DNA of 59,378 nucleotides, filler included, from Sphacelaria rigidula (taxonomy: Eukaryota): NCBI GenBank assembly GCA_964200075.2. It is 4 parts of 4 records of this genome, joined end to end, with 100 filler letters (N's around TTAATTAATTAA, not from the genome) between each part and the next. Parts side by side here need not be neighbours in the genome. Positions count along the whole stretch, not along the records: positions 29,743 to 44,511 come from CAXNAA020002058.1; 3 more parts are not named here. One strand, given 5' to 3'. How positions within the stretch are numbered: position 1 is the stretch's first letter; each line of letters opens with the position of its first letter. Made by a program: the position numbers and the translations under genes. The notes beneath the pieces are model-generated. The model was not told where the DNA came from and searched no databases. It saw only the letters and a program-made list of their open reading frames with translations. Shown here piece after piece: positions 29,743-57,112 of the stretch.

Positions 29743-32716
29743 ACGAAGATTTTAATCCTCCGGGTTCTCATCCTCAATGAAAAGCACCATCCTCAACATA
29801 GATGATCGGCTGTTATCAGATTCTCGGAATAGTTTCTTGCAAATGTGGCACGAACTACCGCCACACATGCGCGACATCAGTTTTGACCTTCATGGGCCCG
29901 GCTGGGAATCGGCAGTCATCCGTGAACTCAGTGATGTCCTGCTACAATACCAAGACCGATTTTCCCGATTCAAGACGAATCTTGGGCAGTGCAAAACGCT
30001 GCCCATTGAGGTTACCCTCCAACTCGGCGTCCCGCCGATCTCTTCTCGGCCATACCGGACAAACTCAATCCTTAACAAGAAGGTGAACGCTATCTTGGAT
30101 GCATACTTGGGAGCGGGATTAATATAACATTCCTCCTCTCCTTGGGCCTCGCCCCTTGTGGTCGTCCCGAAAAGGATGGAAACATACGCATAACCGTGAA
30201 TGACCAACGGTTGCACCTCGTCACTGTAGTCGGTAAACTTCCAGTTCCCCGCATTGATTAAGTCTTCGACTCCTTAGGCGAAGGAAAATATTCAGCACCC
30301 CCGATCTCGCTTCTGGATTCTTTCAGAACGCTATTCACCCTGACACAGTCCCACCGACGGCCTTTTGTACCTCGTCCGGACTCTATGAGTTCCTTTGAAT
30401 GCAACACGGTGCCGCCACTGCCCCGGGATGCTTTGAACGCTTAATACAACGCGTCACCGAGGGCCTCGAGCACATCATCACGTACCTGGATGACGCTATC
30501 GCTTTCGATGCCTCACCTATTGCACATATCCGCACTTTACGAGAATTTTTTTCTCGCCCACGCACACACGATTTGAAACTGTCTCCATCCAAAGCTCGTC
30601 TCGGTGCGAGTGACTTGGATTTCCTGGGGCATTCCATTTCGCCAGCAGGCCTGCATCCGGATACAAAGTCAAGGTGATGACTGACTTGCCGATGCCAACT
30701 TGTATTTTTCAACTTCGCTCATTGTTGGGCGGACTATCCTACTACCGCAATTTTTTGCTGAATCTATCAAAACGGATTCGCCCCCTTACTGAGCTGCTCA
30801 AGAAAGGAGCTGTTTTCTCCTTCACAACCGAAATGGAGAAAATCACCCGCGAATTACTCAACACGCTTACCGAAAAGCGGGTACTCTGCTTTCCTGATTG
30901 GGAGGCAGTACAAAATGGCTCTCGCCTTTTCTAACTCCACACTGACGCCAGCACAAACGGATTTGGAGGAGTATTGAATCAACCTCAAGTTGATGGCTCC
31001 GTCCGACCCATCCTTTATATCAGCCGCGCTACCCTGCCCAACGCGGCCAATTGGAGCCCGCTAGAACTGGAAGGGGGAGTGGCCACTAAGGGCCTTCGAC
31101 AATATCTGTTTCACGTGCTCTTTGAGATCTATACGGACTATGGAGCACTCGAACAACTCGCCAAGGTTGGCGAACACAACCCGCGTGTATAACGATGGAC
31201 ACCTTCTACGATAGCCCCCCCCACCCAAAAGTGCATGGTTTTGGGAGGCAAAATCTTCACGTGAATCGAAATGGAAAAAGCCGAGCACAACGAGTAGCTG
31301 GGAATTTCCACGCTTGGTCTCGATCTCGCCAATGTTGCCAATATGAGGCGCTTTATGCAGCCTGAACCCAGACATTAGGCGCTGTATGGCCATTTTTTCG
31401 TGACACTTTTGGGTTGGTTTTTGGGGGGGGCTATCGTAGAGAGTCTCGATGGTTGGATTTTCCACCAGCATACCAGTATACCATTAAGCACCGTCCAGTC
31501 AAAATCAACGGCAACGCTGATCTTCTTTCTCGCCTACCCCTGCCGCCTACGGCCGCAGATTCCAGCCCGGCTTGCCGTTTAACGGGACCCGATGAACCCG
31601 GAATTTACGTGATTAAACGTTTTTCAACGCTCGTTTACGCCCTCGACCTCCAGTGCCCAGGAAGTGGTCTGCATACGGGAGGACCTCGCCCTCTACCATA
31701 TGACGCCGTCTTCGGTGGGTTAGCGCCCACTACCTCTGATTTTGTCGATTCCGCACTTTCGGTACTCGCGCGAAGCTCTTCGGGGAGACACCTTCGGTCA
31801 CCCACCTAATCCCCGACAACACGCGCTCTCGGTCTGCCGCCCACACCACCCCGAGTGCCCCGCCGCCACCGATATCACCTGCAAATTCCACGAGCCACGC
31901 AACATAGGTTCCACGGACCAGCACGCAACGCTCCGCGAACATCCTGCAACGTGCAACACGCGCCGCGGACAATCTTCGCCGCGCACTGAATCAGCCCCCC
32001 CGCCTATAACGGTGCCACCAACATCTACCGCTCCCGAGCATGGAGCTGACGACTTAGCTCGAGCCCCCTGGGCAGATGTTGACGTCGGCACTCCTGCCCC
32101 GTCGCCTATTCCCCCGCTGCCTACCCCACCATGTTTGGTCGGCCAGCCAGAGGAAGGTCAACTACCCGAGTTTCTCCCCAGCTACTCTCACCACGATTGG
32201 ACTCGCGAACAGAAAGCGGAACCGCTATGTCGCGCAGCCATCCGATACTTACAACTCGACTGTCCACTCCCTTTTCCATCCACCCTTCTGCCCCCGGTTG
32301 GCACACTTCCACCCCCAGACATCTCGTCCTCGTGCGTAAAGGCACCCTTTTTACTACGGATGAAGGTGTACAACTACTCGTGCGTCGCGCCACGCCCTTG
32401 ACAGGCGCAATTTCCGTCTCAACCACGGGACGCCACGCACGACTACTCAATGACGAACCAACGCGCATATATGTCCCATTATTAATGCGCCCCTGGGTCA
32501 TGAAAGGCTGCTACACAGAATTGTCACATGTCACCTTGGCGTCACCCGCACCCTAGCGCTCTTGGAACGCTCCTACTGGTGGGTTGGCATGGAAATTTGC
32601 ACCCGCTTCTGGATTCGGTGATGCTTCAAATGCTAAGCCCGAAAAACTTCACGGCAGACCGTACGCTGGCCCGTCACCTCTATGGGACTCCCCAACGAGC
32701 CAGGGCACCTCGTGTC
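29743..32716 (+). pseudogene. pol: degenerate Ty3/gypsy pol (RT, RNase H, start of integrase), copy B
   Basis: SRPYR, SSSPWASPLVVVPK, YLDD, LRSLLGGLSYYR, TDAS, NGNADLLSRLP and the start of the HHCC region; many stops and frameshifts; colinear with 43400-40790 (-); ends abruptly after PGHLVS. Confidence 0.92.
31198..31447. mobile_element. 250-bp MITE, Sola-like termini, inserted in RNase H
   Basis: TIRs GACACCTTCTACGATAGCCCCCCC / GGGGGGGGCTATCGTAGAGAGTCTC; 4-bp TSD GATG; removing it restores colinearity with pol copy A. Confidence 0.88.
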
Positions 32717-32726
32717 GGATCAACGC

Positions 32727-35700
32727 CTAAGTAGACCCGTCTTGTTCAGTGTAGTCCGCAGAAGAGGGAGAAATATCCGAAATGTCTGATTTGGATTCTT
32801 CTAGGACACTTGATAAATTCATCGAGCTCAAACTCGTCGCATTTTGGAGAGAGTGAGGTCGAGAGTTTCCGCTCGAGGGAGGTGTACGTGTTGCTGCGCG
32901 CGCTCCAGTGGGGGCATGTTCACGGGGCTTCCTCTCTTGCCGTGACAAAGGGCGGGGAACTTCCAAAGTGTTTGGGCAAAACCCAACTGCGTCCAGTTGA
33001 GTGGATGGGGTCAACATCGGGGCATGCTCGGGCGAAGCTTGTGGACTGTCCGCTGGCAAGCTTGGCTGCGGAGCCATAGCCGAAGGTATGGTCGGATGGT
33101 TTGTGTGGGAACCATTCAGGGGTAGCTCCGCATGGTGCAATGAACGCGAAGAATGAACTCGTTCGACCTGGGTGGGTGTTACCTGGTCCGAAGCGGTCAA
33201 ATTCTGACCAGCGACACTTGAACCAGTCGAGTGAATTACACTACTGCCTGTGCGTGCGGTCGCTGAGGGAAGCCTGTGCCTCAGAGACGGGCGGTTGGTG
33301 TTCCCAAACCTCAGACTCACGCTCAGTTCCGGAGGACCAAGTCCAGAGCCGAGGGTAGGGCTAAGTTGTGAGTCAACGCAACTGTTACGCTGTGTACGAA
33401 GAGGTGAAGACGGGGTCGATGTGAGCGGCTGTCATTAGAACTTCTGCAAAGTGCCGGGGAAGTTGAGCGAGAAAGTTTGGTCACTCGTTCCGCGGTTGGT
33501 GTTGAAGTAGTCTTCGTGTGTGCTGTCGGCGGCGCCGAAGACGTAAAAACGCCGGCGTCGGCATGTCATGGATCGGTACGATCAGTCATGAAGGAACCAG
33601 GGCTTCTGGCGTTGGGGTTCGAGTGAGTGTGATTCGGCCCGTGAGCTGGTGCCGATCGGCGGAATTCCGGTGACGGTGAGAAGAATTGTCTCTGCGCTGG
33701 GAGCTAGAGTTATCATAGTTGCTGGGATGACTGTCGCAGTTCAAGCAAGTGTTGTCGCGGTTGTTGAAAGGGCGGCGAGAATGACGGTTGGGTGTACGGT
33801 ATTCACGCATGCGTTTCTGCCATCGGCGCCATGCTGGCTCATTGTCCTGCAGCTCAGAGTTCATGAGGTCGAAAGAGTTGATACAAGGGCGAGTACAATC
33901 GCGCATACTGTGACCTTGGGTGTTGCAATTAATGCAACTATTTGCGTGGCGGCTGAAGGCCTCGTGTCTGGCAGCAGACGAAAGGAGGAGGTTCCACAGA
34001 TGTGGGTCATCTGTGGTAAACGCAGACGTAGATACAGTGTAGACACCATCCCAAGTCTCGGCGGAGTATGGCCATCCGTCAAAACTGGCGCTGTACGGAT
34101 CTCTTTTGTTAGCAACGCTCATGACGGAGCCGGCCACGGAGGCGAGCACCCACGAGGAAGGAAGCGAAGTAGACGACCGGTGGCGGGACCCTGAAGGGGT
34201 CGAAGAAGGCGCAGAAGCAGACTGGGAACGAGCTGAAGCATATCTGTCGCCGCGAATGGCCGGCGTCAAATTATTTTCTTGATGAACGAACGCACTCCAC
34301 ATCGCATCCACAGAGGGGTAAGGCACTTCGCGGTGGGCTTAAGCACCTGGAAACAGCGCGGCATCAGTGTTGGGAACTGCTCGGAAACACTATTCCTCAC
34401 ATATGATTGACACATGGCGTCTGATGGGCCAGTCTGGCGACCTACTCCCATAGTACTGGAAACGAGAAGCTTAAATGCTCGGAGGTAGTCCGCGAAGGGG
34501 ACATCAGTTGCGACACCAAAATAAGTAAGTCGTTGGATAGCACTCCCTTGAGTACTGCGATCGAAGTAGCCGGTCAAGCGGCGCTCCAGATCACGGAGTA
34601 AATCCGGGCCTGACTTCCCCGAGGTGCGGTCCGCATCCATAGCGGCCATGAAATCATCAAGGACTTGTGTCAAAGCAGCGGCAGTGTCGGGCGAGCGGCG
34701 GTGGATGGTGCGGTGCAGAGCTTTGTGGAGTGGAGTCGGCCAGCCGTCAACCCTGTTGGAATTTTCGAAACGTTGAGCACCCGTGGAGTCTGCTAGCTGA
34801 AGGATGTTTCGAAGAGTGCGGCGTATAGAGGTGATGAGAGCAGGAGTGAATTGTCCCGAGTCTTCGTTGTCTGCGGCAGGCATGGATTTCACATGCCAAA
34901 GTTTTTTCACGTCCATTTGGATGTATTCTCTCTGAATTGCGGCGGTGCGGGCGGATTCCGCTCGAGCGGCGGCTGCTGCTGCACTAGCAGCGGCTTGCTC
35001 TCGCTCGGCGGCAGTGGCAGCCAGAGTGCGAGCCGAAGTGGAAGATACCGGTTTATCTGAGTTATCGTCCGAAAGGCCTAAAATCTGGCGTGAAACATCT
35101 GCTAAACGCGGTGTAGCGCGACCTAGGGTGGTAGAAGTCGATGCAGGCGAGTGTGCGGTGGATCGAATGCTGGGCTTGGCGGAAGGAGAGCTCGACGAGC
35201 CGTCACTCCGATGTGTCTGGTTCAAACCGGTGGTGGGACGAGTTACACGGTGTGGTTGATTTTTCCCAGAGGAAGAGCTTGAACCTCCGCGGGGGTTGTG
35301 AGAATCAGCACGGCGATTGCGCTCATGGTCGGCAACATCATGTCTGTGGCGTCGGCGGCGAGGGGTCACCGAAATCCAGTCATCAACTTGGGCTGTGGTG
35401 GATTTGGAGGCGGCGCGCAATGCGTCGAAGAGCTCGACAATGGACAGTTCGTAAGGGGTGATGGTTTGTTCCAGAGTTGGACGGCGCGACAGTAGATACA
35501 GGGGGGGTTGAAGCGGGTGCGGGTGCGCAAGGAGCCCGGAAACCAGTATGGGTACCACTATCGGCGTCAGTATCGGCGGCGGTGGCAGTTGCAGCGGTGG
35601 TGGCAGCGGGAGCCGGGGCCGGGACAGCAGAAACTGTGTGTTTGGGGGGCGCAGTGGGGGGTGTAGATGCGGGGTTGGTCACAAGTGTTTGTACTGTGCG

Positions 35701-36850
35701 CTGTAAATCGGCAAGTTGTCGACGCAAGGAACGGATGGCTGCAGCGTCAGAGCGGGAAGACCTATTGCGTGTGAGAGCACGGCGACTGCGGTGGCGTGAG
35801 TCGTATGGCGATTGGTCGCTGGAATGCGCGATCGACGATTCTTCTGCAGAAGGAAGATCTGAAAAAATGTCCCTAATGGCGTCGGCGTGCACAGTAACAT
35901 CATTACGTGGGGAGCGCCGACGTGAAGAAACCCTTGAGGCAGTAGAAATACGGGAGGAACGAGAGGTGTATCTCGAATTGTCGTCACGCGCGGTCATCCG
36001 TCGAGCGGGGGTGGTTATGTTGTGTCGGAGGAAAGACGGGCGTGGCGATGTGGGTGAAAGCCGAGGTCCGGTGTGGGTGGGCGTGGTCTGGCGGGGCTGG
36101 ACACTGTTGGCTGCTTGCATGTCGGCGAAAGCAAAAGGAGAGCGTAGCAAGGTATTGCATAGAACTTGCAGTGCTGTGGCTATACTAACATCTGGCACAG
36201 GGGCTGGTTCCAGATTTATGCCACAAGCAGCCACTGGGGCCGAAGACGGGTGTTCCGAGTTGGGCAAAGCAGAAGTCAAAACATTTTTCGACAAATCATG
36301 ATCAGCCGGGGCACGAAAAGTAGCCGCGGGTGTTGACAAAGTGCGTGCCGGCAGGGCAGCGCGGGCAGTAGTGCCAGCAGTTGGGGGTCCGGACGTGGGT
36401 GTCACCTGCACGCCGGAAGGATCTTGGACTGAAGCTTGTACGACGAGATCCGGGCCGGCAGTAGAGGCAAGGGGTGGAGTTGGGGCCACGGGTAACACCA
36501 GCGTGATAGGGGGGTGGGTTGGGGACACGGGTAACACCAGCGTGGTTGAAGGGTGGGACACGGGATGTGTCAAGGTGGGCCCAGTGTCGACGACTGCGTC
36601 CGATGGGGTGTGTGCTACGACGGGTGCCACCGGCGTCGTGACGGGTTGGGGTACAGAGCGTGTCTGTGAGGAGTGGTCACGGGTGGGATGATGAGGGAGG
36701 GTCGGAAGGGTACGAGAATCCGAGCGATAATCGGAATCGGAGCTGGGAGGGGGCGATGAGAACTGCACGGGTTGGTCCTCAAAACCGATGGATCGAGCAG
36801 CGCTCGAGGCTGGTTTCCGTAAGGCTGAAGAAGAATCAGCATCGGCTCCG
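32727..36850 (-). pseudogene. gag: degenerate Ty3/gypsy gag plus downstream low-complexity linker
   Basis: Overlapping frameshifted ORFs 36768-35383, 35558-34266 and 34326-33586: Pro/Thr-rich N-terminus, capsid-like F.DYLRAFKLLV segment, and CX2CX4HX4C knuckle CINCNTQGHSMRDC. Confidence 0.8.
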
Positions 36851-37956
36851 GAAAAATTAGAAGATCCCTTGGTTTGGCTCCGCGTACGACGGGGCGGATT
36901 GGCTCCCGTGTTGGGAGAAGAAGCGGTGGTGATACGTTGCGAGATAGGTGAAGCGTATACAGCGTCTACAGAGCGATACGTTCAGAGAAGCCAGAGCAAG
37001 AAGCGAAAGCCATTACGTGATGTTATTTTATTGTGTGTTGGGTTTTTTTTCAAGTTTTTCTCTCAAATTCTTATTTTATTTTCAATCACGAATGTGCGGG
37101 AGGGTATGTAATAGCCACAACACAGGGGCACAAGACCAAAACAAAGCCAATCACTGAATGTCTGATTGAAATGCAACTCAAAACCGGAAAGTGGTATAAA
37201 AATCGGAAAAACAGCTTGTAATAGTGTCGCCTAGGTGGGTGCGGGACAATTACAAATGGTCCAGCGGAACACCCCGCACAAGGCGGTGGAGGCAGTGGAC
37301 AAAGGTGAACTGCCAGGGGCAAAATTGTACGTGATTGACCACGATCGCCGAGTTTCAACGCCGCACGCTACGAAAACAGCGGCAAGTAACAATAGCAAGT
37401 CGGCAGCTACTAAGTGCAGCTGAGCACCGCCCAAAAAAAAGGAGAGGAAATACGTGTGGGCAGATGAGATGGGGAGAGTGGGGCAAATTCGGGGATATCT
37501 GCCGAAAACAATGTATATCTGTTGAACGGAATGGGGCAGATAGGTTTCTGGTACCGAGAAAAAGCAACACAGTACAGGTTCACAGTTGGGTGGCCAATAC
37601 AGTAAAAATTGCGCGGCCAAAGAAAAGGTCGCAGAGGAGACAGTGCGAACGCAGTAGAAGTAGCGCGTCGAGAAGCGCGTGTAAAACGCGATTCAAGCGA
37701 AAGTGTACTGCTGAAAATCGCTGCACGGAACGAACAGCAGAGAACGCTCCGTTGGGGCATCTGTGTTTGCACGTGTACGGTACCGTGGGCTACTGTAAAA
37801 AGCAATCGAGCGAATGAAAAGCAAATGACTCACAAAACAAAATGCGAGACAAAGCTACAGCAAGAGGGGGAAAACAGCAACTAGAGGGCAGTACAGACAT
37901 TAGATAAGCAAACAACTGCTCTACTCTGGAAAGGGAAAACAAGCTAGCAAGCAGAT

Positions 37957-37974
37957 ACTCCAAGTCGAACGCCA
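37957..37974 (-). promoter_or_regulatory. putative primer-binding site
   Basis: TGGCGTTCGACTTGGAG on the minus strand, 2 nt after the LTR end TATAACA; priming tRNA not identified. Confidence 0.5.
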
Positions 37975-37976
37975 AT

Positions 37977-38372
37977 TGTTATAGTGCTAGGCGGGATGCA
38001 CCCTCTGGGTGCAAGCCGGTCGGGTCAGAGGTCAGATACTCTCAAGGCTCTGTCCCCACAAGGGATCGGGTTATAGACGTGTTTAAATCAGCTAACACCA
38101 CAATAGCTTCACGTAGTAAGCTATACCCATTTGATACAAAAAAATCTTGTTCACTCGTATTCGTTATCACTCCTTTCAATGCTCTCTCAGCTGCTCTCCG
38201 GCTAAAGCAATGGCTTAACAATCAGCTCCACCCGGGCGAGTACCGCAAGAGGGCTGAAGGACCCATGCCTGTACCTTCTTATCAGTCTCACATCCGGTCT
38301 AGCCAAGCTCAACCAGACCCGCAACTTATAGAATCCCAGGTTTGATCATAGACGCCTCCTAGCTTCATGACA
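37977..38372 (-). repeat. putative single LTR (~396 bp)
   Basis: Minus strand TGTCAT...ATAACA termini, preceded by purine-rich GAATGGGCGAG (PPT-like, 38383-38373) and followed by the PBS-like site. There is no second LTR in the window to confirm it; alternative upper boundaries are 38401 or 38550. Confidence 0.5.
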
Positions 38373-38698
38373 CTCGCCCATTCAGAGGAACCTCTATTAC
38401 AGTTGCGATGAGAAATCTCGAAAAGCGACGAAAATCGAGTTTTTTCTCTACGTCAGGTCATGAGCGACAAGGAAGGCGAACTCAATGCTATAAAAGCACT
38501 AGGCCGAAGTGGCTAAAAAAGAACGTACACCCCAGACGACGAGGGCAACATCCACTCTATTGCCCGATCCTCCCACACCTCAAACAAGGGAAGCGAAATC
38601 TGCTACCGAAAAGCGCAAGTGCGCTTGAAGACGCAGGAGCACACAGAGCTGCTGCGGGCTAGCGAACTAAACAGACGAACACAAAATGCTTCGACGTG

Positions 38699-39044
38699 CT
38701 AGCCAAAAATATAGAGGCGAAAGAGAAAACACACCAGGGGCACAACGTCCACGTGGGTGGTGCCAAAGTCAACCGCCGAAAATTTAATCACATGTGGCGA
38801 GCGTATGGTGGCTGAGGGAGCAAGGGGATAAGCAACTCCAACACTGCAAGGGGTCCAGTACCAGTCATATAAAAAGCCAAAAGCGAGAATACGAAAAGCT
38901 CCAGTAGTCGGGGATGAACGTGCTCCACGCAAGTTCCATTCGTCGTCCGTGGTTGCGCGCCGAAGGAGCTCCGGTTGTAGGCTGTTGAAGAAGTCGATGG
39001 GCGGCACCGGTGTGTCCTGGATGTCGGAAATAGGGGGGAAATAT
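38699..39044 (-). CDS. putative extra ORF between pol and the PPT, preceded by a splice acceptor
   Basis: Open frame YFPPISDIQDTPVPPIDFFNSLQPELL...FRILAFGFLYDWYWTPCSVG...HVIKFSAVDFGTTHVDVVPL, with no ATG, directly after a long polypyrimidine tract ending TTTAG. Confidence 0.4.
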
Positions 39045-39120
39045 CTAAACGACGCGGGAAGAAAATGAAAGAGAAAGGAGAAAAAATGTCGGGATCGGAA
39101 AGCAGAAGGTCTGTGGGAGC

Positions 39121-42100
39121 TTAAAGCGGTGCGTTAACATCATGTGTGCGATCGATATTATGTTGTATTCCGCGGCGGAGGCCTTTGGATTTGAGTTGCT
39201 GAAGACACCAAGACCTTCGTGGTGCGGATGGACTGGTGGTATAGAGCTCTGGGCGGAGCTTGAGCTGCACGGGTCCGGGGTCATCGATGAAGCGCACGAT
39301 GTAGGTGTCACGCGCGATGAGGTCTGTGGAGTGGGTCTGGCCTAGCCACCAGAGGTTGTCGCTGCCTTTGTACCAGAGGTAGGCGCCTTTGGGGAGGATT
39401 TCCTATTTTGCGCGGATCTTTTCTTTCCAATGCTGGGTGGCTACCAATTCATAGCCATCGGCGACAAAGCGCAAACCTTTGTCACGGTGAAGTTCGCGTG
39501 CTGCTGCGCCGCGGCGTATGTTGCGAAATTTCTTGTTGTTAGCAAGATGTTGCTGCTGAGGTTGTGTCCAGTACAGGAGAATAGCTCGGTGGTGCAACTG
39601 AAGGTCGGATTCGCGTTCCCAAGACGCTATCCGAAGGCCTTGCCCGTGAGTTTTGTAGATGACAGCAATCTTACCGCCTCGACCGCGAGTGATCTGGTGA
39701 TAAGAAATGTGGGACACGGCGAGACGAAGGGGTTGTTCCGCCACATCGTCGGTAGTAATGTGATCAGGCGGTGATTTAGTCGAATAGCTGTTGAGTACGT
39801 ACTGCGTAAGACCGGCAGGCAGATATTTGGGCATGTATCTAGTGTCATGCGGGTTGATGCAAGGTTTACAACGGTGTACAGAGACGCGAGATTTAGCGTC
39901 ATGTCCTCGAAGGTCGCGAGGAAGATCGAGATAAAGAAGTTTGTCACCGACAGGTTTGCCATCAGGTGAAGATGGCGAGGGCCCTACGGTCAGAATCTCG
40001 AATGGTCCTGTCCAGTTGAGGGATAGCTTGGTCTTCAAGACCGTCTCGTTGGCAGCTCTGTCAGCGCCTTGACGAATGGTTGACAAACTGTTGTAAACCC
40101 AGAGCCAATCGCCAACCTTCCAAGCAGGTCGTTTGTGCATCAGATTGTAGAGAGCATTATTAGATCTCTCAAGGCGCGAGGCGTTGATGGCGTGTTGTTC
40201 ACGCACGAGAGTGAAAGCTTTGCGCTGGCGTGCACGCGCCAGGTCATGGTAGGATATCTGATCCTGATCCAAGCCTTGGTGGCCATCGAAGGTGTGTCTC
40301 TCAAACACGGTGATGGGCAAACGCGGGTAGCGGCCGAGATGTAACTCGTTCGGAGAAAGACCGGTAGCAGCGTTGACGGAGTTGTTATAAGACAACATGA
40401 CATGTGAGAGATGAAGATCCCAATCGTTTTGTCGATCGTTGACTACCATAGACAGCATCTGGGCCATGGTGTGGTTAACTCGTTCAGTACCACCGTTACC
40501 ATTAGGGTGGTAAGCGCTTGTGGCAATCTTTCTAATGCCCAGGAGCGTATACAGTTCGTCCGAGAGGTCGAAGAAAAATTGCTGACCATTGTCGGAGAGA
40601 AGCCGTTTCGGGCAACCATTGTGCTTGATATAGTCATGAACTAAGATATTAGCTGTGCCCGCTGCTGTGAAGTCTCCAGCGGTGACTGCGTACATGGCTG
40701 CGTGACGGGTGAAGCGGTCGGTAAAGAGTAAGATGTAGGTATTGCTACGGTCAGTGGGCGGTAAAGGGCCAAAACAGTCGAAAGACACGAGGTGACCAGG
40801 AGCGTTGGGAAGTGCCATCGAAATAACTGGCCAACGTATAGTCTGTCGTGAGGTTTTGCGAGCTTGACACTTGAAGCAGCGCCGAATCCAGAAGCGGGTG
40901 GACACTTCCATACCTATTCACCAGTAGAAACGTTCGAGTAACGGTAATGTGCGCGTGACTCCAAGGTGGCAAGCCAGGTCAGTGTGACAGCCTTTCATTA
41001 CCCACGGTCGCATCAAAATAGGACATATATTCGAGTGGGTTCATCGTCGAGTAGGCGTGCATGGCGTCCAGTGGGCGCGGGTGAAGTTACTACCTGCTGG
41101 GGCGTAGGACGGTGGACAAGCAATTCGATTCCGTCATCAGTTGTGAAGATAGTATCTTTACGTGCGAGTTCGTATACCTCAGCGGCGTTTGGTGGTGGCA
41201 GTGTGCCGATTGGGGCTAATAAATTGGCTGGGATAAGAGCAGGGCAGCCAGCACGGAGGTACCGCATGGTTGCGCGGCGTAATGGTTCTGCTTGTTGTTC
41301 ACGAGCCCAATCACGATGGGAGTAACTGGCGAGAAATTCTCGCAGTTGGCCTTCCGCCGGAGAGCCGACCAGACATGGTGGCTCAGGAAGCGATGGAACA
41401 GGCGACGGGGGGGAGGTGCCAACGTCGATGTGAACATCGGAAGCATCAGAAGGGGTGGGCACTGACGGGACCGCAGCAGGCGGCGATGTCGCAGTAGTGC
41501 GCGCCGGAGATTGCGCTCGGCGCTTGTTGTGAGAACTGCGCGTGGCGGGGGTTGTCAAGGCTCGTGGTGCGGTGTTGCGGGGAGCCGGCGCGACGCTGCT
41601 TGCTGGAGCAGTAGGTGTTGTCAGTGGCGGCGGGGCGCGGGGAGGGTTAGCGCGGGCGGCAGACCGAGAGCGCGTGTTTTCGGAAAGGAGATGGACAACT
41701 GGAGGTTGCGAAACTGCAATATTTGCGCGAGGACCGATAGTACGGCAATCAGCGAAGTCGGCGTCGGTGGGTTGGAGTCCATTCAAGACTGCATCATACG
41801 GTAGGGGGCGGGGACCGCCCATGTGCATACCCGTCTCTGTGCAATGAAGGTCAAGGGCGTAAATGGGCGTTGAGGAACGCCGGATTGGATACACGCCGGG
41901 TTCATCGGGTTCAGTTAGTCGGCAAGCGGGGCTGAAATCCACAGCCGTTGGAGGGAAGGGCAAGCAGGAGAGAAGGTCAGCATTTCCGTTGCTTTTGCCA
42001 TGGCGGTGTTTGACAGTATACTGATAAGCTGTCAGGAACTCCAACCAGTGGTGCACACGCGGGTTATGTTCGCCAACTTTGGCGAGTTGTTCAAGTGCTC

Positions 42101-44408
42101 CGTGATCCGTGTAGATTTGGAAACGCACATGGAATGAATATTGTCGAAGGCGCTTTATGGCCCAAGTGATGACTCCGCCTTCCAGCTCCGGTGGACTCCA
42201 GTTGGCCTCGTTTGGAAGGGTGGCGCGACTGATATAAAGGATGGGTCGAATAGAGCCATCGAGTGGAGACTGATTCAGGACCGCGCCGAGCCCGTCTGTG
42301 CTCGCGTCTGTATGTAGTTGAAAGAGGCGAGAGCCGTCTTGTACAGCATCCCAGTCCGGGAAACAAAGTACCAGTTTTTCGGTGAGCGTTTTCAGCAAGT
42401 CGCGCACGATAGCTTCCATATCTTTAGTGAAGACAAACGCCGCACCTTCCTTCAGCAAGGCCGTAATCGGGCGAATCCTTTTGGACAGGTTAGGCAAACG
42501 TTTGCAATAGTAGGACAGTCCGCCTAATAATAAGCGGAGCTGAGTAATGTTTGTGGGCATTGGCAATTAAGTCATTGCCCTGACTTTGTTGGTTTCGGGG
42601 TGTAGACCCGCCGGTGAAATCGAGTGTCCCAGAAAATCCAGTCCAGTCGCGCCAATGCGAGCTTTGGATGGAGACAGTTTCGAATAATGTTTTCGCAGTC
42701 GAAAAAGAAACTCTTGTAGGGTGTGCACATGCGCAAGGGGGGAGGCATCGAATGCAATAGCGTCGTCCAAATACATAATGACGTGTTCGAGATTCTCGGT
42801 AACGCGTTGCATTACGCGTTGAAAACAACCTGGTGCAGTGGCGGCACCTTGTGGCATACGGAGCCATTCGTAGAGTCCAGAAGATGTACAGAACGCTGTC
42901 AGTGGGACTGTGTCAGGGTGGATGGCATTCTGGAAAAATTCAGAAGCAAGATCGAAGGTACTGAATATTTTGCCTTCGCCTAGAGAGTCGAAGACTTCAT
43001 CTATGCGGGGAATGGGGAGTTTTCCCACTACAGTTACGCGATTTAACCGTTGATAATTCACGGTGATGCGTATGTTTCCATCCTTTTTGGGGACTACCAC
43101 TAGCGGCGAGGCCCACGGAGAAGAGGAGTGTTGGATTAAACCGGCACCTGAGTACGCACCTACAATGGCGTTAATGTTTTTGGTGAGGATGGGGTTCGTC
43201 CGATATGGTCGAGAGAAGATTGTCGAGACGCCAGGTTGAAGGGTGATTTCAAAGGGCAGCGTTTTGCAATGCCCCAGATCTGTTTTGGATCGAGAAAATC
43301 TGTCTTGGTACTCCAATAAAACATCGCTCAATTCTTTGATTATAGCGGGTTCCCAACCGGGTCCATGTAGGTCAAAATTGATGTCACGTCAATGGGGTGG
43401 AAGTTGATCCCACATGTGCAAGAAACTTATCCGAGATTCTGGTGATAGACGTTGCAGCACTTCAGCAGGACGTTCGGACGTTGACGGTGCAGGGTCCACG
43501 GTGTGAATACGTGATGGAGACGAAAAGGTTACGTCGAAGTAAGGCTCATCGACGGAGTTGACAGAGCCGTCTGTCGGAGGCGCTGGGTTGGGCGTAGAGG
43601 GTTCAGTGGCACATGTCTCAAGTGGAATGTGCATGAGGGGAGCAGCAGCATTACCCAAAACATCTCCGGGTTCCAAGTTAGCGTGACCCGTGAGTGGCAA
43701 AAGTTGTTTCCCTGCGGAGACGAAGTGTCCTGTGCCGGCAGGCACACCAACGCGAGGAAGCATTTCAGCGAGGTAATGTCCCGTAAGGGCACGCATCGGC
43801 GAACTAAGGCAACAGTTGAGGATTATCGGAGAGGGTGACACCAGTAGTACCATCGTATCGCAGGTGGTAAGCAGCTCCGGTAGCTTGTTCATTTTTTTGG
43901 TAGGCCAGGGCGCTGTGAAGAGTTCCGAAATGTTCAAGGTTGAGTTCTCCACGAAGCGCACACTGTGGCGATAATGCTGGTAGCGTGCGGTAGGTGCGTT
44001 GATCAAACCGCATGTAACTATCTCGGCCCATGAGTAAGGCGTGAGCCATGGTGCTGTCCGGGACAACATATGCCCAGACTGCAAGGCTGGCAGAACGAGT
44101 TGTGTTGGGAAAGAATTGCACACTGAGACGAACTGATATTCGTGTGGTCAGAGGTGCGGTGGAGTCACCAAAACCGCCCCATACTCGAGGTTTCGTGGCA
44201 GTTTCGCAAGCTGCTGAAGCACCGCCAAACTATTTTATATGTTCCCACATTGATTCACGAATAAATGTTTGTGGGCTCCCGCTGTCTAACAAAGAGACGG
44301 ATTTGGCAGTGGTGGGTGCGTATGGTCCACAATGGAGCGCTACGCGAGTAGTATAAGTGGCAGGATCAACAGACACTTTACCGCCGACAAGATCCGGACC
44401 GTGTTCAG
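39121..44408 (-). pseudogene. pol: Ty3/gypsy (chromovirus-like) pol, copy A: protease, RT, RNase H, integrase, chromodomain, extra C-terminal domain
   Basis: LLDSGS protease motif; RT RMPQG and YLDD; RNase H LHTDAS and YTDH; integrase HHCC (..CFKC), SFD, SDNG, NGGTER and WTGPF; chromo-like VSHISYHQ...IYKTH.QG...SWERESDL; a few stops and frameshifts. Confidence 0.95.
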
Positions 44409-44511
44409 GAGTCATCCTACGATAGGGGGGGGGGGATTTTGGGCCATGGATAGCACGAAATTTAGGGAGAAAGACCCGTTGAAAGCAATCAGGGTTGTCC
44501 GCATCAGCTTG
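44409..44511. mobile_element. left end of a Sola-like MITE (cut by contig end)
   Basis: GAGTCATCCTACGATAGGGGGGG, same terminus as at 54723. Confidence 0.75.
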
Positions 44512-54722: not shown

Positions 54723-57112
54723 GAGTCATTCTACGATAGGGGGGGGGGGGTATTTTCAGGGTTCTTGACGTTACACGATACACGTTACGTCACAAATGTG
54801 ACGTATGAAACATTATACGTTACGTCACGTCACGCTTCGTGACGTCTCAAAATTCATACGTTACGTCACGTCACATTTTTTACCGGTACGTCACGTTACG
54901 TCACACTTGTGACGTTTTGAAAAGTTATACGTTACGTCACGTCACAGTAACGTATTTTGAAACGTGTATTGTGACGTGTAACGAATGATATACGTCACGT
55001 TTGTGACTCGTAACGTGAAATAACCCGTCAAACTTCGACCGTGTTGAGGGCAAATGAACGCCACGTACGACGTTGCAACGTTTCATGTACCGTAGCTTGG
55101 AACGGGAGGTTCACGGTGGCTGCCTTGTTCGAGCATGAGGCGCGTTCTGATCGCTATTTTGACATGTAAGAATGGTTTTCAGCTGGTGTATCGCTCACGC
55201 GTCTCTGACTCACAAGTTGCAATTTCAAAGAAATAAATGAGTAGTACGTTATTGATGTTCGACAATCAGATAGTGAGATACCAAGATGCGCGCAGGCCAT
55301 GATGAACACATACGAACGCAAGTATGTACAGATCATACGTTGGTGATACCTGGTAGTTGGTTGGCATTTCGTAGAACAACCAACGCATAGCAACCCGATT
55401 CTGTATTGTTGTAGGTGATTGCGCGCTCAGCAGGGCATGTATGCAGAAGATCTGTATTTCTATGTATAAACATATAAATAATACACATGAATCGATGATC
55501 CGATACAAATCCAGCCGCGTTCGCAGGGCAGACATCATGAAGGTAGAAACACATGATGACTCATCGTTACGGTATCCTCGGCCGCGCTCATCGTTACGTA
55601 TACGTCGCACGGCTGCAGTCAAAGCTTATGCTTCGGAGCACAGCCGTGTGGACATACACTCGTAAGCAGTATGTGGGATTTGTATACAGCGAAAGATATT
55701 GAAGAATTATATTCTTCAGCCCAATTGATACATGAATCGGGGAGCAAGAAGATGAATTTTCAACAATTTTTGCTGCATCTCGAATCTCATCCGCTGATTA
55801 CGGTGCAGTATGTGGGACTTGCACAGCTGAGGCTGTTCGCAATAAGTTCTCTTTTTGCCAATTTCTGGATGAATTGGCGGGCAAAGTGAGGATGTATATC
55901 AAGCAGCTTCTCCAGTCCACGTTCCAAATCTAAAAGTGTGTATGGCGTTTGTACAGCAGAAGAACCTGTTCGAAATAAATCCTCTTTTTGCCCGATTGCC
56001 CGATTGGAAATCGCGCAAAATATATATATTTATTCCGAACAGCTTCTCTGACAAAAGTAATTCTACAGATCTTGTAACAAAATAGTTTGGAATCTTCAAA
56101 TTGGGAGCGCCTCTCCGGAGGGTTGCTCACAAGGTTGCTTACAGTGTGTCGAGGAAAATGCTATACAAAATACTGGTAGAGGGACTACGGTCTGCAAATG
56201 CCGTACAGGAGTTCTCACATAGACTGTGAAGAACCCTGTGCAGCGCGTCCTACCGGGTGCTATCTTTCCACGTGTGTCGCTCCCGCCCCGTCTGTGCTAT
56301 CGAAGTTGGAGTTTTGAAATTCGGAAATTCGGAAGTAGGGCTTTCGGATTCCGATATTCGTTTGTTCTATGGTTGGATGTGGTGTGACGGTGCATGCTGC
56401 CGTGGCGCTAAGCTTGCGCTTGCATCGCGTGCGTATTATGATGACGTGTATACACACTCTTCTTGAACCCATGTATCATATCATGCGAGTATCACATATG
56501 CTAATCTCACACTAATTGCGGTACAAGTTGAGCGTGTGACGGTTGTGACGTTCATTCAGACGTATATCACAAACGTATAATGTGATAACGTGTAATGTTT
56601 ATGGTGACGTTTGACGTATAAAATACGTTGCACCTTACAGGAAACGTTTCAAAATACGTTAATGTGACGTATAACAGAAAATGTCACGTCACGTCACATT
56701 TGTGACGTCTTGAAAAATAGTACGTTACGTTACGTCACGTCACATTTTTTCACCGGTACGTTACGTCACATCACATTCGTGACGTATTCGAAAAACACAC
56801 GGTACGTTACGTCACACCCTTGATACGTAACGTTTGTGACTTGTGACGTACGTGCGACGTATACCGCGAAGAGCCCTGGGTACTTTGGGCCATTTCTTCC
56901 ACGAAATTCCGAGTCAACTTGTCGTTGAAAGCAGCGACGGTTGCTCGAACAAGCTTGTTAGAGTCTAAAGATAAGTAACGCTCATTCCTGCCGATTGACA
57001 TCCTTTTGAACCAAATAAATGCGCACCGGGAGTGTGTCAGGTTGTTTGACACACTTATAAGCCTCTTTCTTCGTGCCATCAAATACCCCGCTCCCTATCG
57101 TTAGGATGACTC
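54723..57112. mobile_element. ~260-bp Sola-like MITE split by a nested hAT element
   Basis: TIRs GAGTCATTCTACGATAGGG...TATTT / AAATACCCCGCTCCCTATCGTTAGGATGACTC; 4-bp TSD AGTT at 54719-54722 and 57113-57116. Confidence 0.88.
54757..56878. mobile_element. 2.1-kb non-autonomous hAT element with ACGTCA/TGACGT subterminal arrays
   Basis: TIRs CAGGGTTCTT / AAGAGCCCTG; 8-bp TSD GGTATTTT / GGTACTTT; dense GTTACGTCAC repeats in both arms. Confidence 0.88.

Follow-up and report, generated by a model that had tools for sequence, protein, structure and literature searches.

A chromodomain and a Tudor-like barrel in one frame at the integrase C-terminus of a brown-algal Ty3/Gypsy retrotransposon family

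The Pol of a Gypsy retrotransposon family in Sphacelaria rigidula ends in a chromodomain, a basic helix and a Tudor-like barrel, which lie in one reading frame and are conserved across the clade to which the family belongs. The standard example of a retrotransposon steering its own insertion is a chromodomain fused to the integrase. For a chromodomain followed by a Tudor-like integrase tail, we found no earlier description in literature drawn mostly from outside subscription journals and Repbase; looking for an earlier integrase with a chromodomain plus a Tudor or PWWP domain led only to PMC12477816 and general papers, and the accessible parts of 10.1101/2021.11.30.470311 and PMC5348765 report chromodomain or PHD fusions only.

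The window, i.e., the whole stretch of DNA analysed, is 59,378 nucleotides long and consists of joined contigs, of which the one carrying the locus occupies positions 29743-44511; the others are unrelated to it. The element belongs to a high-copy family of Gypsy (Metaviridae) retrotransposons and has decayed. Its pol runs on the minus strand, with reverse transcriptase (RT) at 42618-43094 (PF00078, E 3.2e-22), RNase H at 42024-42428 (PF17917, E 1.7e-25) and the integrase core (rve) at 40504-40806 (PF00665, E 2.2e-6, under the cut-off in the decayed window copy), and this domain order, together with an LTR and a purine tract, is that of a Ty3/Gypsy LTR retrotransposon. The 574-bp LTR (37977-38550, minus strand; TG...CA) is directly preceded by the purine tract, and the same ends are found in about 20 further copies whose flanks are unrelated; judged from the copies, the element measures ~12.4 kb. 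Two tandem copies have this LTR in common, the gag of the next copy of the same family coming after it as a broken region at 32717-36981 (minus strand), which other copies carry upstream of their pol and which has a weak zinc knuckle match (E 0.076). A primer-site-like stretch is present behind the common LTR, and the same tandem, one-LTR layout was seen at another locus (L004). The gag region is adjoined in opposite orientation by a broken pol of another subfamily (29817-32716, plus strand; ~75% identical).

The integrase frame at 40917-39403 (minus strand) contains the chromo-like segment and is closed by a TAG at 39405-39403, beyond which the same frame continues for 93 further codons to a TAA at 39123-39121. 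This layout, pointed out in the initial annotation, is confirmed by other copies: the 93-residue peptide has 150 scored matches among 799 candidates in the same genome, at 75-100% identity. A sense codon occupies the TAG position in all 47 distinct other copies, which makes the TAG a decay mutation private to the window copy, as had been thought probable. The terminal stop of pol is kept in 31 of the 33 copies that cover it (14 of the 47 have no coverage there), and the frame is thus conserved beyond the TAG. Contigs over the TAG site in four sequencing runs are mostly unlike the window (the whole depth in three of them, and 3886 of 4235 in the other). Three runs, RNA by guess only, have contigs spanning the tail; expression is not thereby shown. 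Programmed readthrough, which would yield integrases both with and without the barrel, had also been entertained and is consistent with the open frame downstream of the TAG; however, it is rejected because every other copy has a sense codon there and none a stop (0/47), and the window copy of pol has further breaks besides the TAG, so that we regard readthrough as extremely improbable.

The barrel is under purifying selection. Across 585 between-subfamily pairs, which are non-independent and come from copies selected by barrel likeness, pairwise dN/dS was 0.05 for the core, 0.11 for the chromodomain, 0.24 for the linker and 0.16 for the barrel. A profile search returned 591 relatives at E 0.001 or better. 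Among 159 relative proteins, most of them short fragments, both domains were found in one stretch in 27 (counting that of the window and some with frameshifts), the barrel only in 53 and the chromodomain only in 65. Integrase, chromodomain and barrel stand in one frame in five of six long proteins (P0162-P0166, unbroken), and the sixth, from Ectocarpus, terminates within the barrel; unbroken frames of this kind are also present in L073, L074 and L110 (sister clade, same genome; 2075 codons). The named relatives come from Ectocarpus sp. CCAP 1310/34 and Nemacystus. Four long proteins without an integrase (P0087, P0088, P0154 and P0068) end in the same barrel, P0068 also with a chromodomain, and a related N-terminal part is common to P0087 and P0088; these proteins may have arisen by deletion, represent another type of element or be domesticated genes.

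With regard to the order of domains, the segment at 39847-40143 (minus strand, as are all those that follow) carries a WTGPF motif that is kept in relatives, has no Pfam match, and is taken here to be the GPF-motif/SH3-like integrase C-terminal domain. The chromodomain, type-II-like and with a conserved RGRGG loop, is at 39556-39732; it is joined to the barrel by an Arg-rich helix (tail residues 82-99), a short strand and a helix at 39406-39555. The barrel itself (tail residues 127-195) lies at 39193-39399, and a basic C-terminal tail of low pLDDT with the terminal TAA of pol at 39121-39192.

Pfam gave no match for the 93-residue peptide alone, and nothing was returned from the PDB by a single-sequence search of the peptide or by a shallow 17-sequence profile. 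A 130-sequence alignment run against the PDB at E up to 10 gave 13 matches, five chromodomains and eight PHF1/PHF19 Tudors, each on the expected part: Swi6, MPP8 and Oxpecker on the first domain (E 0.2-1.3), and PHF19/PHF1 Tudors on the second (E 0.037-1.6; best profile E 0.033-0.037). The AlphaFold2 model of the tail has pLDDT 85 and pTM 0.78, and the latter value hints at packing between chromodomain and barrel; a complex prediction of the two, with the alignment unused, scored 0.00 and is no evidence on packing either way. Residues 16-72 of the model have the three strands and C-terminal helix of solved chromodomains and superpose on Chp1 (Z 7.9, rmsd 1.4, 53 of 55 residues aligned), the top 21 fold rows being chromo-type, and Pfam Chromo matches 17 of the 130 members weakly. 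A viral fold library gave nothing at E 0.001 or better.

The second domain (strands 133-137, 143-151, 158-163, 169-173 and 190-195) is modelled as an SH3-like small barrel that superposes on Tudor domains, a Tudor/Royal family fold. Its fold scores are modest, with Z 5.7-6.6 across Spindlin, RDM15, PHF19, one PWWP, Spt5 and F-plasmid TraI and no Z of 8 or more: Spindlin1 gave Z 6.6, RDM15 Z 5.8 and PHF19 Z 5.7 (rmsd 2.0, 55 of 57 aligned), and non-reader barrels tie at the top (TraI Z 6.3, Spt5 Z 5.7). Foldseek of the barrel model placed PHF1/PHF19 first (E 0.013; none at 0.001), and language-model features led to Tudor, Agenet and Tudor-knot clusters, mostly below 0.9 (family matches 0.82-0.90). 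Helix and barrel together align (Z 5.2-5.7) with extended Tudor domains, whose partners are methyl-arginine proteins. Of the likenesses proposed initially, that to Tudor is upheld by profile, Foldseek and AlphaFold2, whereas PWWP appears the weaker match, with a Pfam match in one of 130 members (E 0.12), one PWWP structure at Z 5.8, a WW without the prolines and one short, low-confidence helix after the barrel. The fold is best described as a Tudor-like small barrel, and descent from Tudor is likely, if statistically unsecured. Although the PHF1/PHF19 Tudor and the Tudor-like domain of Spindlin are its best profile and fold matches (PHF19 at ~2 Å over 55 residues), the barrel differs from PHF1/PHF19 in having ~20% identity, two of the four cage aromatics absent, an extra strand and helices, and fusion to an integrase.

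Two possible sources of the barrel found no support. For a duplicate of the integrase's own SH3 domain there was no profile match and no integrase in the fold rows shown, with the reservation that negatives from hhalign are weak, since a positive control, a canonical chromodomain against the window chromodomain, was also missed. P0089 (4885 aa, 18 stretches), considered as a cellular donor, is a bacterial Ig/PKD-repeat protein whose ~3-6 bits per repeat amount to chance. No host donor was found in the S. rigidula genome, where a TUDOR search was empty and a PWWP search gave two matches.

The likeness to aromatic-cage readers suggested initially for the barrel is not supported. The cage of the PHF19 Tudor is formed by W50, Y56, F74 and Y80 (PMC7105160). 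Mapped from a sequence alignment at E 0.04 rather than from coordinates, these positions are aromatic in 0/81, 69/81, 63/81 and 0/77 rows of the barrel alignment, i.e., two of the four aromatics of a PHF1/PHF19-type cage are present. Eight printed sequences of the sister clade, judged by eye, have an aromatic at the second position in none and at the third in three. In the main clade an aromatic stands two residues ahead of the lost first position (in 65/81) and a pair of acids follows the third (66/81 and 60/80); these could form another pocket. The chromodomain positions that we take to be the cage aromatics, mapped through the Swi6 profile alignment, are aromatic in 2/64, 75/91 and 5/90 rows, one of the three of a type I (methyl-lysine-reading) cage, and the window copy is without the middle one also. 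Type II chromodomains are reported to be without the first and third cage aromatics (PMC3059260). Because both methyl-lysine cages are incomplete, the reading of H3K79me2/H4K20me3 envisaged in the initial annotation is unsupported.

The tail is basic (31 K+R versus 16 D+E), and its Arg-rich helix and RGRGG loop are conserved, as judged from R/A/G columns of the alignment. Few parts of the tail are more conserved than the RGRGG loop in the chromodomain hairpin (39673-39687, minus strand), where the position of the first R is basic in 70 of 76 rows; the loop could serve in nucleic acid binding or be a site of arginine methylation.

As to what the tail may do, we lean slightly towards a role as chromatin tether of the integration complex. 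The tail would grip nucleosomal DNA or the nucleosome surface through its basic residues and the barrel, and a methyl mark would not be required. Against this, basic tails are common and the fold matches tie with non-reader barrels. Classical methyl-lysine reading is not proposed, because both cages have lost key aromatics. The Tudors of PHF20L1 bind DNA and lose their mark selectivity on nucleosomes (PMC13285377). Brown algae are described as having no H3K27 methylation and mostly no H3K9 methylation (PMC13076208, PMC12477816), and a tether of this kind would, speculatively, fit a host in which both are largely absent. A possible but clearly less probable scenario is a true two-reader module, in which the barrel would read methyl-lysine or methyl-arginine through a rearranged pocket and steer insertion by mark, either H3K36me3, as in PHF1/19, or H4K20me3/H3K79me2. 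PHF1/PHF19, which read H3K36me3, do give the best profile and Foldseek matches, the main clade keeps two cage aromatics with a nearby third aromatic and acids, and a cage of three aromatics plus Asp exists in PHF20L1 Tudor2 (PMC13285377); however, an aromatic never occurs at two of the four PHF19 cage positions (0/81, 0/77), the sister clade is aromatic at the second in 0/8 and at the third in 3/8, and the chromodomain is without two of its three cage aromatics.

It is also conceivable, and in our estimation unlikely, that the tail serves as a binding module for protein or RNA, or as a structural one (for host-factor docking, integrase multimerization or particle assembly), and does not bind chromatin directly. 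Such a module would be in keeping with the alignment of helix and barrel to extended Tudors that bind methyl-arginine proteins and to non-reader barrels, with the conserved RGRGG loop, and with the occurrence of the barrel at the end of the long integrase-free proteins P0087, P0088 and P0068. The tail occupies, however, the place of the targeting domain in other Gypsy integrases (PMC3059260), and the barrel adjoins a chromodomain fold. A broader conjecture, doubtful as a whole, is that Tudor-like domains were captured twice independently by brown-algal Gypsy elements, each time behind a degenerate chromodomain, and that the chromo-helix-Tudor tail is one rigid module whose rearranged pocket reads DNA along with brown-algal chromatin, for instance H3K79me2 on the face of the nucleosome.

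The relationship of the family to known elements bears on its novelty. Four Gypsy lineages are described in Ectocarpus, three with chromodomains and one with a Tudor domain, the latter represented by Gypsy-10_Ec32 (11.5 kb, LTR 636 bp), which was termed the first Tudor-bearing TE in 2025 and whose Tudor was aligned to cd20401 (PMC12477816). A Tudor-bearing Gypsy element, probably from a different lineage than the window family, was thus already in print, which the initial annotation did not take into account. PF21743 matches none of 130 window-family members at E up to 1 but 118 places in the same genome, where another Gypsy clade passes its cut-off. We take cd20401 to be a PTM-like Tudor, matching PF21743 (PTM/DIR17 Tudor). 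In 15 of the 118 loci plus relatives, the PF21743 clade is 22-26% identical to the window family in integrase and ~28-31% in RT and forms its own branch (support 100/100) in an RT tree with a midpoint root, no outside references and no published lineage IV sequences; this clade is also present in Ectocarpus (P0188). Identity of the window family with Gypsy-10_Ec32 is, in our view, quite improbable: the two have comparable lengths (~12.4 kb here versus 11.5 kb) and LTRs (574 versus 636 bp) and NADAR is noted for neither, but the Gypsy-10 Tudor was aligned to cd20401, PF21743 has 0/130 matches here, with the examined loci among its own-genome matches placed in a separate clade, and NADAR-bearing elements nest in the window-family clade. 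Compared by description, Gypsy-10_Ec32 and its Tribonema homolog are ochrophyte Gypsy elements that resemble the window family in a Tudor-type domain at the integrase C-terminus and differ in probably belonging to another clade, in their Tudor, which would be of the PTM/DIR17 type, and in the lack of a reported chromodomain. The barrel of the window family probably represents a second independent capture of a Tudor-like domain.

The window family is most likely allied to Ectocarpus Gypsy lineage IV, of which NADAR is a feature (PMC12477816). The tie is provided by the close relatives L073 (190-7347) and L074 (1001-2614), which carry NADAR at the Pol N-terminus (E 1.9e-45 and 1.8e-52, respectively) and nest within the window-family clade with support 96/97. 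NADAR was absent from the Pol N-terminus in the window family and the sister clade, and so would have been gained or lost within the clade. Lineage IV elements (e.g., Gypsy-12_Ec32) resemble the window family in a Gypsy Pol with a C-terminal putative chromodomain; unlike the window family they have NADAR, and a Tudor-like barrel is not mentioned in the accessible parts of their description (PMC12477816). In lineage IV-like elements the barrel is probably a second domain that had been overlooked. The S. rigidula genome itself has only two NADAR matches (L126, L127), both on one contig.

The comparison with chromoviruses made in the initial annotation is loose, in that the Ectocarpus chromodomain Gypsy lineages are reported to be unrelated to chromoviruses or Chronos (PMC12477816). 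Type II chromoviruses and oomycete Chronos are like the window family in their integrase-fused chromodomain, type II also being without the first and third cage aromatics (PMC3059260), and unlike it in having a single targeting domain. A third lineage in this set (L051-L070) carries a canonical chromodomain with all three aromatics, shortly after which it ends, with tail profile matches in 0/20 loci; it resembles ECR-1, compared by description only (PMC11541908). The PF21743 clade, represented by L079-L093 and P0180-P0188 from this genome and relatives, has its PTM/DIR17 Tudor at the C-terminus, and in it a conserved segment ~50 residues before the Tudor resembles a degenerate chromodomain by eye; searches for a chromo-like segment ahead of the PTM-type Tudor gave no confirmation, hhalign being weak as a negative.

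The tandem of chromodomain and Tudor-like tail, probably a second capture, suggests that reader folds were recruited more than once in a lineage that lacks H3K27 methylation and most of that at H3K9. Selection still acts on the domains although their cages are eroded, so that a 200-residue fragment would permit a direct test of binding when the classical marks are missing. If the rearranged-pocket module were true, the two domains of the tail would together target the integrase, and the tail would be a candidate for the reader of a repressive mark in algae that have no Polycomb.

Finally, we note two observations on the window at large. No tRNA genes were found in it. At 54819-56815, short ACGTCAC-rich direct and inverted repeats lie ~1.6 kb apart, and are perhaps the ends of a DNA transposon.
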